Below, in pieces: positions 44,684 to 63,625 of a stretch of DNA of 64,000 bases. The first letter of the stretch is position 1. Each line of letters opens with the position of its first letter. A program made the position numbers and the translations under genes. This DNA comes from Bacteroidota bacterium. GTDB lineage: Bacteria; Bacteroidota; Bacteroidia; 2-12-FULL-35-15. The notes below the pieces were generated by a model. That model ran no database searches. It worked only from the letters and a program-made list of their open reading frames with translations, and was not told the origin of the DNA. The stretch covers positions 243,616 through 307,615 of the forward strand of contig JAOQAE010000004.1 of NCBI GenBank assembly GCA_025963725.1, written 5' to 3'.

Positions 44684-45016
44684 TTATCAGCTACGAATGA
44701 CTATATAAATAGTATTAAATCAATATCACATACTACCTTATTTATAGTTTATCAAAAATATTTCATGTCAAAAGACACTTTTCATTGGTTTGTAATAAAG
44801 CCAGTGGAAATTAATGTGTTACACTTCTGGCTTTGATTTAGCGTGAAATAGCTGCTCTTCAAAACAGGTATTTTTACCTATTGCTTTTCTTTAAAAGAAT
44901 CCTTCCCTTTACAATATTCAGGTTTAATAAAGCGTTTTTTTGTTCCGTCCGAATTAATATTAAAATTCCTGGTATCTAAATCACGGAAGCCCGTTATATC
45001 ATTTAAATAAATAATT

Positions 45017-47107
45017 ATGGCTGATAAAATATATTTCTATACCGATCTTGACGCAATAAAGGCGCAGGCACCGAACGATGGTAGGCCTTATGGCTTATTG
45101 GATAGCCTTGACGTAGAATATGAGGCTTTAAATGAGCAGTTCAGCCTTACAAATATTCATACGTTAAATCCGGGCAAGGTCGCAAATGCTTATGCGGTGT
45201 GTAAAGGAACTGTTTTAGCACAGGAAGTTGCTGGCAGTGGAGGGTCCAGGCTGAATGTTTTTTTAAAGCCTGACCCCGAATTTAATTTTGGTGAGCTAAG
45301 TCCTAAAATCCGTTTTTTTGTTTACAGGAATATAAAAGCGTCCACCCTGGTTTCCGGCAGTTTAGTAGCATCCAATCTCAATACCCTGACCTATAAGGTC
45401 CACGAGGATCACTATAAAGAAACTAATAATCATAACCCGGATAAAAAAATCTTAGGGCTTGGGCTTACGCTGGTCAATGGTTATGCAGATGATTATAATA
45501 TTGAGAAAGCGTTTAATGCACCAAAATCCGGCTATGCTTTGCCCGCTATTGATGCCGGGGACTCAATGGGTGAATTTGACGGCTCTGTACAATTTGAGAT
45601 CATTATAGATACGTTCCTGTTTCAACCTGATTTAACTTTTGCCAGGAAGGCATATCACTTGCTGGACCTTGCACCGGCAGGTTCATCCGCGGAAAACGTT
45701 TTAAAGAGGAAAATTGAGAAGGAACAGATATTAGCCTTCCTTGATCCGGCAGCCTTTTTCGGCAGCTTTTACAATTCCAAAATAACTGTTTACGGAAGAA
45801 ATTCAACTGATACTGTAACATCTGCATTTAAGTATACCCACAGTTCAAAAAATATCTTCACGGAAATTCTCTCAACCTTTAAAAATAAGAGTACCGTATA
45901 TTTTGATGTTAGGAATGACTTTAATTATTCGTTTAATACTTTTTCGGATTATACGGAAGAAATTTTAATAGATACGACTAATAACCAAACTGCACCACCT
46001 GCAACTTTCCAGGACTATTATGCAAAAGCCAATAACCAGAATTGGCCTATACTTATCTTAAATGAAACGAATATTACTACCACAGCAACCGATCAGGTTG
46101 TCCGCTTCCAGTTTCCAGTCGGGGATAATTTTATTCCTTTATTATACCTTTCAATAGGGGAATGGTATCAGAATAACAGGGATAAAGCCCAGGGAAAAAA
46201 TAAACGGTTTTACCTCCCTAAAACAGATCGGTCAAATTTTTATATGCTTGACTGGGTAACGATAAAATATAAAGTATATCACAATACAACTTTAAGTACA
46301 TATGTTCCTATTGCTGGATACAACAAGATCTATATATACAGACGGCTGGATGCATCCAATCTTTATATTACGGATAAAAATGCTTCGCCGCGACAGAATA
46401 GCTTTTTAGATAAGGTATTTCAACCCGATAAATTAATTATTCCCTATGCCACTCTCACTAGCGTTAAGATAAAAACTTATGACGATGACTTTTATTTTGA
46501 TACAGCTGAGTTCTTCGGGGTGGACTTTGTCGGGAAAATAGGCATTGCAGAAGATCTGCACAATATCTCCTTATTTGCGTTCGCAACAGACATCAGAGTG
46601 AAAAGCAATAAGCTGAAAAAAGCTCATATGGAATCTATTGTCAGTGAAGAAAAACGCGTAGATAAACACTTTCTGCATTTGATAGACGAAGAATATACAA
46701 ATGATAAAGTTAATTTGACCTCAGAGCAGGTCGATACCGGAACCAGCACGCCGGAGATGGTTGACTTATATAAGTTCGTGAGGGTAAAAAGAAGAAGCAG
46801 ATTAAAAGAGGCTGAATTTGATCACGAATTTATTTCCGTTGAGATAAATCCAACCGTGTATACTTCAATCGTAAATAATTACAGCACATACATCCAGGGA
46901 CTGCCATATTTTCTTGACCTGAAATACCCGCGATCCGAATTTGGCCGGGAGGTAACAACCTCTATGATCGATGGAAAAAGTGTAACTCAGTTTAATATTA
47001 CTACTTCTGGATTTTCTTCGGCATCCGGATCGTTTAAGCTGGCAAGCAACAGCAGTGGAAGTGTTTATGGTTACAAAGTAAAAGATGTAATAGTAGAAAC
47101 CGAATAA
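45017..47107 (+). CDS. Giant-operon gene 1: hypothetical protein, 696 aa, no signal peptide, no recognisable motif
   Basis: Long ORF with ATG; AT-rich codon usage unlike the flanks; 333-bp AT-rich leader upstream; 12-nt gap to gene 2. Confidence 0.6.
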   Translation: MADKIYFYTDLDAIKAQAPNDGRPYGLLDSLDVEYEALNEQFSLTNIHTLNPGKVANAYAVCKGTVLAQEVAGSGGSRLNVFLKPDPEFNFGELSPKIRFFVYRNIKASTLVSGSLVASNLNTLTYKVHEDHYKETNNHNPDKKILGLGLTLVNGYADDYNIEKAFNAPKSGYALPAIDAGDSMGEFDGSVQFEIIIDTFLFQPDLTFARKAYHLLDLAPAGSSAENVLKRKIEKEQILAFLDPAAFFGSFYNSKITVYGRNSTDTVTSAFKYTHSSKNIFTEILSTFKNKSTVYFDVRNDFNYSFNTFSDYTEEILIDTTNNQTAPPATFQDYYAKANNQNWPILILNETNITTTATDQVVRFQFPVGDNFIPLLYLSIGEWYQNNRDKAQGKNKRFYLPKTDRSNFYMLDWVTIKYKVYHNTTLSTYVPIAGYNKIYIYRRLDASNLYITDKNASPRQNSFLDKVFQPDKLIIPYATLTSVKIKTYDDDFYFDTAEFFGVDFVGKIGIAEDLHNISLFAFATDIRVKSNKLKKAHMESIVSEEKRVDKHFLHLIDEEYTNDKVNLTSEQVDTGTSTPEMVDLYKFVRVKRRSRLKEAEFDHEFISVEINPTVYTSIVNNYSTYIQGLPYFLDLKYPRSEFGREVTTSMIDGKSVTQFNITTSGFSSASGSFKLASNSSGSVYGYKVKDVIVETE

Positions 47108-47119
47108 ATATATTTTTTT

Positions 47120-63300: not shown

Positions 63301-63550
63301 GATTGGCCTGGTTTTACCATCCGGCCACAGCTTCGACCGCATGGATGTGATCCTGGAAGATGACCTTGGCGGGGCATTTATCAAGAACACAGGAACAAGC
63401 GCCGGGGGAAGCGTCACCTTCAACCATGGAGAAGGCGGCCTCGCCTTGAACAGCTCAAGCCTTCACCGTACCTATTTTGTAACATTTGTGCTGTACACAA
63501 GCGCATGCAGCAATGGAAGCAGCTATTCATTCACGATCAGGTATGCGTAG
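57305..63550 (+). CDS. Giant-operon gene 5: hypothetical protein, 2081 aa, no signal peptide; internal SGGNT(I/T)(I/V)V repeats, His-rich patch (WNHVHHHAHQY), three C-terminal ~125-aa Cys-containing repeat modules
   Basis: Uninterrupted 6.2-kb ORF, 11 nt after the gene 4 stop. Confidence 0.6.
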   Translation: MSTIDLSSLPVVQSPYTYLQAAGSDGADRTVKGIHLRWDFLRTLGDNHLAKGDYTLTTPYVSETGFNREDDFIRICRTGFVTKYFITINFDVNETTEVNTGTLRAWQYSLPVDSLSGVTRDVTVRFTDYTQYDAIIASQSTFDTIDLLTQYTGIVEIETDGKLFFYAKFNGTLTAKDSYVRAESVTVPDSLDYAQKQVSCRKKFVGTVDKIVSCDNIQYLRFDYNMVSWKDIQIYCYEDYIAGINEEDAWDEVGKFALTTDDAVIGPRFIPAQVDGASGHWPKFNDDNPLTGEFTVNKLNYQKRWRRPGFSFDKDNPSSNDFNGLQHFVHTYMELSASDERALASIPSDDSADPTTQDISYLDMIRLMSLDYHVARILGLGHIDQLTRLKNPPYIYCLEYKTFIGLEPPLNSKDERTHIYMTTPVSPTDYRLPAAPQLAPVTYGISVDNGTPTPTLLTDADGYAAFGDIRFVNINRGPFNFERPFGPFYYDTTEFCLCEETQPVAYGLEYREISEAGYRKPEICHDSEYLDVSGMPETVPILEGGTPKIFTHQEVEEGTHEYSAYAINWFSRVSPLSDPVEVVTEFPKHANLLPPFNFAVQLIQDEDPAEPVISEKALILTTQAEQNILSMIPTSSDKTLVRTTFDWNHVHHHAHQYADYADIFFRRPEPLIVKGKISAVTVLPQHMAEIETTSYTISSTFPVTTVTPAISPADAGKFVGSFFSSGGNNYLIENVSSTGVNPTFTVRQLKEIVASADDLHPGQFVSNETFESPVVGDLFFTAENMGAAANWDLRMTKRIYLEKFYSNAKVSLRFSPTRVKQFDIKSVAYSGGNTTIVVEKPIDTSLISGMALEYSVKHEITAVGSGTFTIAGNLTSDFTVGKMFRVFANKDNDGAYTVNSSSFSGGNTIITVSGAIPNVANDDGLLEIVVSRAISSINAVTNSFVIAGNMVSEIDAAYLEYKTESDGTMSRFVVGGIKDMVDFEPILTTPAPGSGVLPEGTGYIQLKFQNYDLLPHPDPEVTWYKGTVRLRDAALNMQVYPVSYIGNLSSSSAPHLAIVIQDPGFVPASAGSGSDFYTLNLGTAQEANFHPGYRLYLTADNGVDPVTGTPLAGSARNFDSNEILPVFSDINEGSRQTYMSVRSYDVKNELESFLSNPVVLLAQKIMIPLAPDPPQGPLYATRPDFYGKSTYTFDTRLDTATIPGRVPYSVVFYRTSEDRVLDVLYKKDTKQALLDALDALGTAVKHDPQLWNILFGVQTDTAENASTSNGPDFVTYSTTAGTFNWPLPDNDTITLTYESNKALSTTNPPPSGALVFPFSNSSFIFKFDTPAYTIYGKPWTPHQIVRRVLQDAFLSMTEQAPMFSYFKTGTVTSSVKAKSRDASGNLLDPLTNDIFPMIRKLPGSGDTVIRFTDYTLDGASKSLYFYRAVEMDDKFKFSPASLPVGPVLMVNAFPPDKPQIRKLLTKLRDINTNTPSSVLFEINEYSANEKISKVEIYRATSEIEALSIRTMKKAKSLTWGSPLVDDFSDVPFPLYGETLYYRIIAIREVEDVKDVLLAPAPMPGDPVPTVIVDLPSLPSEISRAGIVDVVNPPAPRLYSENGTTTSTELQDVILRWDPTCYNGTYRLQKLNSSGNWVQIYSVKVTDAPMQYPPLDINSLPDFANFPETETLQRFDEDGKPIYHRFRVQVENSSGLFNLSEFELTLAKGCSDLQEIESRLSFSDDNGHSFAVLSSQEIVTGANQPGKLIFSNIVAPLPAGHNTLVSIAVTVKDDLDNTQTLSVSPGGTVTFDSVTAPALDLTGPNRIYTITTKMYTDACSAGAVQKFTINYLAGPCYDLRQVSTLLKLTDSNHDIDPLVSGNVNNGVSAPVQLQLTRIDDFPSGMTFNHIDITVTDNTGAFATKTMNPADTDVTFTNADGIDLTSPNGSYVITANVVTDECTAGNEVTYNIAYTYTPCDDLTTLTGIAKYTDANGTVLDPVSSQTVTATHANGSITLQDKIGLVLPSGHSFDRMDVILEDDLGGAFIKNTGTSAGGSVTFNHGEGGLALNSSSLHRTYFVTFVLYTSACSNGSSYSFTIRYA
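62426..63547 (+). other. Three tandem ~125-aa repeat domains at the C-terminus of gene 5 (residues 1708-1833, 1834-1955, 1956-2081), each framed by a conserved Cys pair
   Basis: Alignable pattern in each module: (P/G)C.DL...... PSGH.F.... V.F....(G/L).L...N..Y.IT......C..G....F.I.Y. Confidence 0.7.
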
Positions 63551-63586
63551 TAGGGCATGATGTAACGGGCGAATAAAATGAGCCGA

Positions 63587-63625
63587 CGGGTAAGCACTTT
63601 TAAATGTGTTTACCCGTTTTCTTTT
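63587..63625 (+). terminator. Hairpin terminator CGGGTAA-N16-TTACCCG followed by TTTTCTTTT, 37 bp after the gene 5 stop
   Basis: 7-bp stem, long loop, T-rich tail. Confidence 0.5.

Follow-up and report, generated by a model that had tools for sequence, protein, structure and literature searches.

The 64,000-nt stretch of contig JAOQAE010000004.1 analysed here, from a Bacteroidota bacterium and referred to below as the window, carries near its right end a block of five co-directional genes, g1 to g5, two of which encode giant proteins (Table 1). A preliminary description made from the letters of this DNA had pointed to the block as an operon, and its five open reading frames (ORFs) were recovered with exactly the coordinates and sizes given there. 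The tight junctions, including a 14-nt overlap, were also reproduced (12, −14, 6 and 11 nt) when g3 is taken to begin at M15, a start that is backed by the end-to-end alignment of the few relatives of this protein. The AT-rich leader and the hairpins at both edges, which had also been noted, proved to be real features: the two hairpins that flank the block are the two best terminator-like hairpins across 44.2–64 kb, a region in which terminator-like sites as such show no excess (12 sites, against 18.3 in shuffled sequences). The hairpin at the left edge is the terminator of the preceding gene. A search of the leader against Rfam returned no family, and the leader contains no strict Bacteroidota −33/−7 promoter (TTTG-N17-23-TAnnTTTG); a sigma-70 scan of the region gave no more sites than were found in shuffled sequences.

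Table 1. Coordinates of the block, its edges and the regions distinguished within g4 and g5 (window positions)
Feature	Position	Strand	Remarks
Left-edge hairpin terminator	44657-44678	+	9 bp, 6 GC, T-tail
Leader/promoter region of the block	44679-45016	+	338 nt, GC 0.284
g1	45017-47107	+	696 aa
g2	47120-49750	+	876 aa
g3	49737-51050 (ORF opening at 49695)	+	437 aa from M15; 451 aa from the first ATG
g4	51057-57293	+	2078 aa
g4, DUF6603-like all-beta region	51774-54041	+	residues ~240-995, predicted long antiparallel hairpins
g4, C-terminal ~500 aa	55764-57293	+	highly conserved, invariant GPxGHxH...YxD...K/P, conserved Cys
g5	57305-63550	+	2081 aa
g5, core	57305-62428	+	residues 1-1708, conserved, directly after g4
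g5, distal part	62429-63547	+	three Cys-framed ~125-aa modules, starting at nt 62429, 62807 and 63173
Right-edge hairpin terminator after g5	63585-63618	+	13 bp, strong

The block had been described as AT-richer than its flanks, most strongly in g1–g3, and as foreign in composition. Both statements were borne out by calculation. The guanine-plus-cytosine (GC) contents of g1 to g5 are 0.385, 0.381, 0.335, 0.437 and 0.465, compared with approximately 0.49–0.53 in the flanks, and the GC contents at third codon positions (GC3) are 0.37, 0.35, 0.33, 0.46 and 0.48, compared with 0.50–0.68 in five host genes. The absence of a recognisable family signature was likewise upheld, as searches of the five proteins against Pfam, PHROGs, NCBIfam and PADLOC gave nothing significant, and sequence and profile searches of the PDB (with g4 and g5, and with family profiles of g4, g5, g1 and g2) were empty or returned noise, such as influenza HA with E=0.016 and Cas8f with E=0.4. 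Among the five proteins, a hydrophobic, signal-peptide-like N-terminus is present in g3 alone, in agreement with the preliminary description, and none has a transmembrane helix. Sequence comparison gave no sign that g4 and g5, or g1 and g2, are paralogues. A metagenome-assembled genome (MAG) labelled 'Bacteroidetes bacterium' encodes identical copies of proteins of the block, namely JWO09_2290, JWO09_2293 and JWO09_2294. The T9SS (type IX secretion system) sorting domains and CHU_C Ig domains of host proteins likewise place the host in Bacteroidota.

Relatives of the cluster and their distribution

Relatives of g4 were sought in a reference-genome collection that holds one genome for each of 185,579 species, and 213 stretches from at least five phyla were found to encode one. 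A protein collection yielded at least 256 relatives of g4 and at least 192 of g5, which are approximately 1650–2600 aa long and are all labelled 'hypothetical'. The two giants travel together: g5 lies directly 3′ of g4 in 74 of the approximately 76 fetched loci with sequence downstream of g4, and a protein of the g1 family is encoded upstream of g4 in 71 loci. The complete five-gene layout recurs in two metagenomic loci, L089 (729, 780, 196, 2079 and 2100 aa) and L094 (677, 793, 389, 2009 and 2209 aa), the latter with an integrase-like gene adjoining. The preliminary description had treated the five genes as the unit. The conserved unit is instead g1, with or without g2, followed by a variable slot, g4 and g5, and g3 is an accessory. 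The block is thus very probably one copy of a conserved mobile cluster with this core, the three giant components of which are the g1–g2 unit, g4 and g5. The large proteins of the core are signal-less throughout the family, as had been proposed for the block, since a Sec-type N-terminus was found in none of 42 g1, 78 g4 and 74 g5 homologues.

The distribution of these stretches is patchy and extends over several phyla. Further signs of mobility are the integrase beside L094 and, as described below, the insertion sequences around a relative in Mycetohabitans and a g1-like protein on a mobilisable plasmid. Among cultured strains, complete clusters occur in Pedobacter nyackensis DSM 19625, P. alluvionis DSM 19624, Pedobacter sp. 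R-06 (whose genome is complete), several Mucilaginibacter species and Nubsella zeaxanthinifaciens TDMA-5; relatives of g4 were found in four Mucilaginibacter species in all, and also in P. montanisoli. Among MAGs, the Bacteroidota hosts belong to Fluviicola/Crocinitomicaceae, Saprospiraceae and Chitinophagaceae, and further hosts to Acidobacteriota (including a chromosome-level assembly), Planctomycetota, several alphaproteobacterial orders, Chlorobiota and Kapaibacteriota. MAG contigs may carry a wrong taxonomic label. The loci outside Bacteroidota have a host-like GC content of 0.53–0.68, which argues that they are not mis-binned Bacteroidota contigs. A 'Hydrocarboniphaga' locus (L009), nominally gammaproteobacterial, has a GC content of 0.47 and Fluviicola-like sequence; it is probably mis-binned and was not counted. 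Some genomes hold several copies, with three loci in one alphaproteobacterial MAG (L050, L067 and L072) and two in one Bacteroidetes MAG (L033 and L079). The multi-copy genomes include an extra-large variant, in which g4 has approximately 2850 aa, g5 approximately 3200 aa and an upstream subtilase giant approximately 2700 aa.

In other hosts, g4 and g5 are GC-richer than their flanks in 48 of 63 cases, mostly slightly. Unlike most of these loci, the block is GC-poorer than its host, which supports a fairly recent acquisition from a donor of lower GC content. A search of the window for tRNA genes found none, so that no tRNA-adjacent integration is apparent.

Features of the individual proteins

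The only link of the giants to a named family concerns g4. Its residues from about 240 to 995 are homologous to a DUF6603 protein of Mycetohabitans endofungorum (phmmer E=1.4e-58, tblastn approximately 1e-35), which has 2496 aa, lacks a signal peptide and is encoded on a megaplasmid between insertion sequences, beside a phospholipase D. The DUF6603 model itself (PF20248, gathering threshold 27 bits) does not match the block's g4 at E≤0.1, but it gives scores of 26.3, 26.2 and 19.4 bits with members of the g4 family and reaches the threshold with the homologue of L038 (27.2 bits). On this sequence evidence, g4 can be assigned to the DUF6603 superfamily. The Mycetohabitans protein shares with g4 the homologous region, the large size and the missing signal peptide, whereas conserved sequence in g4 extends over approximately 1300 residues more, and g4 has in g5 an obligate partner that is missing from the Mycetohabitans locus. 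DUF6603 is itself of unknown function, and neither it nor PF20248 is mentioned in any paper found.

An AlphaFold2 model of g4 predicts approximately 770 aa of long beta-hairpins that resemble the walls of outer-membrane barrels (pLDDT 70, pTM 0.36). When compared with TonB-dependent receptors, Omp85/FhaC/TamA proteins, LptD and porins, g4 differs from such barrels in having no signal peptide, plug, POTRA domain or TonB box. The sequence identity to outer-membrane barrels is 3–10%, and the match extends over approximately 200 of the approximately 770 beta residues. The likeness would accordingly lie in sheet architecture and is not evidence of membership. A regular beta-hairpin periodicity in the conserved glycines of g4 was also considered, but the signal is not significant: an autocorrelation as high as that of the real sequence arose in 688 of 1000 shuffles. 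A plasmid protein of Haloferax mediterranei (1858 aa) is a distant homologue of g4 (hhalign probability 98.7%, E=4e-16). It is encoded on pHME322 (L086, 9733-22846), where a 1370-aa hypothetical protein and, last, a 1142-aa Baseplate_J-domain protein follow.

The N-terminal 1200 aa of g5 were modelled and are predicted to be mostly beta structure, arranged as fibronectin type III (FN3)-like beta-sandwich domains. Judged by E-value, Foldseek matches these arrays to phage tail proteins, to gp7-like proteins and to the tip attachment protein J. The TM-scores are 0.05–0.09, so that the matches reflect only generic beta-sandwich similarity. When the g5 profile was compared with the Haloferax Baseplate_J protein and the 1370-aa protein, hhalign gave probabilities of 0.5% and 2.5%, respectively, neither of which is significant. 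A motif PxPPGP...PD..G...T.D is common to g5 and the 1370-aa protein, again without significance.

The preliminary description had also recognised three Cys-framed modules of a binding type at the end of g5, and the closer comparison supports such a set. The modules, with first residues 1709, 1835 and 1957, span approximately 122–126 aa, are 34–35% identical and contain two conserved Cys each. In 12 other loci, the C-terminus of the g5 homologue is likewise built of this module, though the number of copies differs. Elsewhere, this end is a Kelch propeller (P0186) or a leucine-rich repeat (LRR) region (P0205) in an operon context that is otherwise alike. In all 13 loci in which g5 consists of the core only (1646–1735 aa), a separate repeat protein is encoded downstream, and such a protein never occurs beside an extended g5. 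By this pattern, the distal part of g5 is a swappable end, probably one that binds the target, and we lean towards the view that it is the specificity determinant of the system. One g5 homologue (P0214, 2485 aa) comes from MMETSP, a project on the transcriptomes of marine eukaryotes. Its source is presumably a bacterium associated with one of them, and its presence there indicates that the g5 gene is transcribed.

The upstream part of the core is headed by g1, which carries an approximately 520-aa domain of the type called PA0049_N (PF27118) by Pfam in its homologues. PF27118 is precomputed on the g1-family homologues P0243 and the giants of L095 and L096, and g1 aligns to the PF27118-bearing region of such giants. 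The invariant residues include Cys62, Gln69, Arg210, Glu236 and Asp243. Members of the family occur either as proteins of 630–720 aa or as the approximately 520-aa domain within giants of 1100–3044 aa, which in many loci have a subtilase (S8) with its prodomain at the N-terminus. The g1 protein of the block has no match in the profile libraries or the PDB, a word-index search returned only 3 homologues, and the comparison of the g1 profile with a 1322-aa protein encoded near the Mycetohabitans DUF6603 gene gave no match. A literature search brought up PA0049 of P. aeruginosa in a small number of papers, in none of which it is part of the title or abstract. A g1-like domain also heads a 1134-aa hypothetical protein on plasmid NZ_CP044508 of Chryseobacterium sp. 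SNU WT7 (L088, 9-3413). This plasmid is mobilisable and has neither g4 nor g5, with a patatin, an M15 peptidase and other large hypothetical proteins encoded nearby, so that the g1 domain also circulates independently.

The g2 protein evolves fast, and its relatives were reached by iteration with jackhmmer. It is encoded by a separate gene after g1 in L013, L028 and L065 and is fused C-terminally to g1 in L005, L014 and L042. A search of the PDB with the family profile gave no match. Sub-threshold similarity to pyroglutamyl peptidase (Peptidase_C15) follows the g1 domain in four independent proteins, those of L011 (residues 2519-2574), L021 and L033 and P0243 (residues 809-917), with E-values from 1e-3 to 1e-5. 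It was not seen in the g2 of the block and was not confirmed by the profile search of the PDB; the part equivalent to g2 may thus contain a hydrolase fold that has escaped recognition.

In the block, the variable slot is occupied by g3, a near-orphan accessory. It has the lowest GC content in the block, its relatives number 3 among 1.84 billion cluster representatives, and no homologue was found in 84 related loci. It had been called a secreted, LRR-like protein. The signal peptide stands, but no LRR profile matches g3 itself, although bona fide LRR proteins fill the same slot in L024 and L094. In Fluviicola riflensis, the slot holds a 191-aa protein and a metallophosphatase.

Neighbouring genes

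Just past the window, 457 nt after g5, lies a gene for a LuxR/NarL-type response regulator (Response_reg and GerE domains, 216 aa; L087:16703-17353). The same regulator family occurs near 11 other loci and stands upstream on the opposite strand in L093, and it is likely that this protein is a dedicated regulator of the cluster. It is followed by an OmpR-type regulator and a histidine kinase on the opposite strand.

Several related loci have enzyme genes in the same orientation as the core. PG_binding_1 and Peptidase_M15_4 are encoded directly after g5 in this way; co-oriented neighbours elsewhere are an Amidase_2 protein, a weak TIR match, a patatin and a DUF900 hydrolase, and a metallophosphatase is co-oriented with the core in a related locus. 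An operon of the cyclic-oligonucleotide-based antiphage signalling system (CBASS) type, with SMODS, ThiF/E1 and JAB proteins and a DUF6602 effector, abuts the cluster in L003/L018 (430-4360) and L048 (23406-26118). Across the loci examined, no consistent defence-island context was found. A gene with an eCIS_core domain (PF13699/DUF4157) lies at L096:1-990 on the minus strand, 1.7 kb upstream of the cluster and opposite to it; this domain is typical of the cargo proteins of extracellular contractile injection systems (eCIS).

Within the window, the gene before the block (42647-44647, +) encodes an NHL/teneurin-NHL beta-propeller, a CHU_C Ig domain and a sorting domain of the type IX secretion system (T9SS), and its separate terminator places it outside the operon. 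Further to the left are two tandem AraC-family regulators (39818-41131, −). Beside them lie genes for a flavin oxidoreductase of the Old-Yellow-Enzyme type (41212-42306) and for a hybrid PAS histidine kinase (37464-39809). A pair of ice-binding-like genes (PF11999; 31684-33288 and 33460-34215, both −), one with a T9SS sorting domain, sits in a local GC dip (0.41 at 31–33 kb). An ORF of 1877 aa at 904-6537 (+) has a GC3 of 0.63, which is typical of the host.

Possible function of the cluster

The cluster appears to lie outside every described kind of system and can be assigned only to the DUF6603 superfamily through g4 and to the PA0049_N type through g1. The preliminary claim that it belongs to no described family is sustained, and searches of the literature for related giant-protein clusters found no description. 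With respect to its function, the conserved core, the hypervariable tip, the variable hydrolases, lipases and proteases, the Cys-framed modules and the mobility point to a target-recognising conflict machine. The five proteins of the block contain no recognisable ATPase or nuclease, nor is there an ATPase among the labelled neighbours, and this lack of a nucleoside triphosphatase (NTPase), together with the presence of peptidoglycan hydrolases, favours a released, self-contained complex.

We tentatively propose, at somewhat less than even odds, that the cluster encodes a released, cytoplasmically made complex that binds targets and attacks membranes. In such a complex, the g1–g2 unit, g4 and g5 would assemble into a large ATP-independent structure. 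It would leave the producer by lysis or through an export step and act on the outside. The variable tip of g5 would recognise the target surface, and g4 would supply a membrane-inserting or enclosing beta-sheet structure. Processing, payload or helper parts may come from the g1–g2 unit and from the genes of the variable slots, which encode g3 in the block and, in other loci, subtilase, peptidoglycan hydrolases, phospholipases and metallophosphatase, and the adjacent LuxR-type response regulator probably controls expression. A role in extracellular antagonism or attachment, with g4 as the membrane-active part, is possible, though we would stop short of calling it probable. It seems rather unlikely, if well worth considering, that the cluster represents a new architectural class of bacterial or archaeal inter-organism weapon or attachment particle, one that is Sec-independent and ATPase-free and consists of three giant proteins. 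There, the DUF6603 beta-wall protein would be a pore or shell, the FN3-rich partner would carry exchangeable tips, and the PA0049_N-type unit, with or without a subtilase, would mature the complex or supply a payload.

The logic of the proposed complex would resemble that of Tc toxins and of tailocin and eCIS particles by analogy, with no relationship detectable in sequence or fold. Like the cluster, Tc toxins comprise several giant, signal-less and ATP-independent subunits, are horizontally mobile and display receptor-binding modules on a large scaffold. They are released but not Sec-secreted, as the proteins of the cluster would be in this reading, and hydrolase or lysis genes lie nearby in some loci. 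The domains that define Tc toxins, namely VRP1, the neuraminidase-like domain, TcA_TcB_BD, SpvB/beta-propeller, the RHS/YD cocoon, the aspartyl autoprotease and the hypervariable toxin, were not found. The preliminary reading of the block as a toxin/adhesion or injection-type complex can thus be retained only in part. Its foreign composition, signal-less proteins and binding modules were confirmed, but no homology to Tc toxins, eCIS or type VI secretion components, phage modules or adhesins was found, and the reading rests on architecture and neighbourhood. Similarly, the statement that the system is not based on an enzyme or ATPase holds for this locus, but the family as a whole is not free of enzymes, since g1-family proteins of related loci carry subtilase S8.

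Several points weigh against a released complex. None of the components is linked by experiment or homology to a toxin, pore or particle that is already known, and the window showed neither a holin gene nor one dedicated to export. The model of g4 is only moderately confident at the pLDDT and pTM given above, and a resemblance to barrel walls is a general property of long antiparallel beta-meanders. Few of the loci have peptidoglycan hydrolases, and patatin, TIR, phospholipase D and proteases are also typical defence effectors. The Cys-framed modules suggest, without proving, an oxidising and hence extracellular site of action. The models cover about half of the residues, and an enzymatic domain may be hidden in g1, in g2, in the C-terminal approximately 880 aa of g4 or in residues 1200–1708 of g5, all of which lie outside the models.

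The main rival reading is an intracellular role in anti-phage abortive infection, which we consider unlikely. Here, the tip of g5 would sense a phage protein, and a protease (the g1-family subtilase) or another step would activate g4, whose beta-hairpin region would perforate the membrane of the producer itself, a logic like that of a gasdermin combined with a protease. All core proteins are cytoplasmic by sequence, the variable LRR and Kelch ends of g5 look like sensors, and the subtilase fusions of the g1 family, the TIR-like and patatin neighbours, the CBASS operons beside the cluster in L003/L018 and L048 and the patchy, mobile distribution would all fit. The cluster resembles gasdermin–protease systems in combining a subtilase (in many loci), a beta-rich, putatively membrane-active protein and repeat-type sensor or binding domains; however, it has neither the gasdermin fold or sequence nor a caspase-like or CHAT protease, its proteins are approximately 10 times larger, and the version in the block has no recognisable protease at all. 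PADLOC-DB v2 gave a single, non-significant candidate, the match of g5 to PDC-M38B (E=0.012, 13 bits), and no significant match to any defence model. Most neighbourhoods are housekeeping, T9SS or regulatory in character and not defence islands, and no NTPase or nuclease was recognised. For a defence system that has no enzyme in this locus, approximately 19 kb would be very costly. The peptidoglycan hydrolases beside the cores and the Cys-framed modules fit an extracellular role better.

Particles built on phage tails share further traits with the cluster, since eCIS and tailocins (Afp, PVC, R-pyocins) and tail fibres also combine a conserved core with a swappable distal end, fused or separate, and FN3-type arrays. 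The possibility that the block is a remnant or derivative of a phage tail or a contractile-injection baseplate or fibre module (giant fibres, wedge, crAss-like virion proteins) has nevertheless been largely refuted, and we regard it as very improbable. It could draw on the archaeal three-gene module that ends in a Baseplate_J protein, on the Foldseek E-values of the g5 arrays and on the eCIS_core gene near L096. But Baseplate_J occurs only beside that distant archaeal relative of g4, its profile comparison with g5 came to nothing, and the TM-scores of the Foldseek matches are very low. A survey of the five proteins and of the genes around 16 loci brought up no sheath, tube, VgrG/gp27-gp5 spike, gp25, Baseplate_J or AAA+ ATPase; capsid and terminase genes are present in no locus examined, and no tape measure was found in the block or the examined bacterial loci. 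The five proteins match no PHROG, tblastn searches with g4 and g5 against 50,697 phage records gave no match, and a scan of IMG/VR revealed no relative of g4.

An ordinary envelope or cytoplasmic structure, such as a giant scaffold, an AsmA/TamB-like beta-taco bridge for lipid transfer or an adhesin exported by an unrecognised route, would fit the very strong conservation of g4 and g5, in which numerous Gly, Pro and aromatic positions do not vary, a pattern typical of structural machines. Adhesins often contain FN3 arrays, and a two-component regulator is adjacent. We think this quite unlikely, as g1, g2, g4 and g5 have no signal peptide, transmembrane anchor or T9SS C-terminal domain; the search for the sorting domain that defines T9SS cargo, Por_Secre_tail, gave no match in the block, though it recognised this domain in flanking host genes. 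The rarity and patchiness of the cluster (213 stretches in the whole scan) and its foreign composition are also unlike those of housekeeping genes, and the hypervariable tip and the accessory lipases and hydrolases are hallmarks of conflict systems.

The released, target-binding complex that we propose would, if it exists, stand as a new class beside Tc toxins, eCIS and tailocins. Its naturally modular targeting end, with Cys-framed modules, Kelch or LRR domains or separate tip proteins, would be of biotechnological interest, and exchanging the tip of g5 might in principle direct a weapon of this class to a new target. If the cluster is an immune system instead, it would be among the largest known and would operate without the usual NTPase or nuclease parts. 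The complete clusters in cultured strains make the question of function testable either way. The cluster is widespread, yet none of its components has a known role; the strong conservation of approximately 19 kb of coding sequence and its repeated passage from one phylum to another imply a function that is important and selectable.

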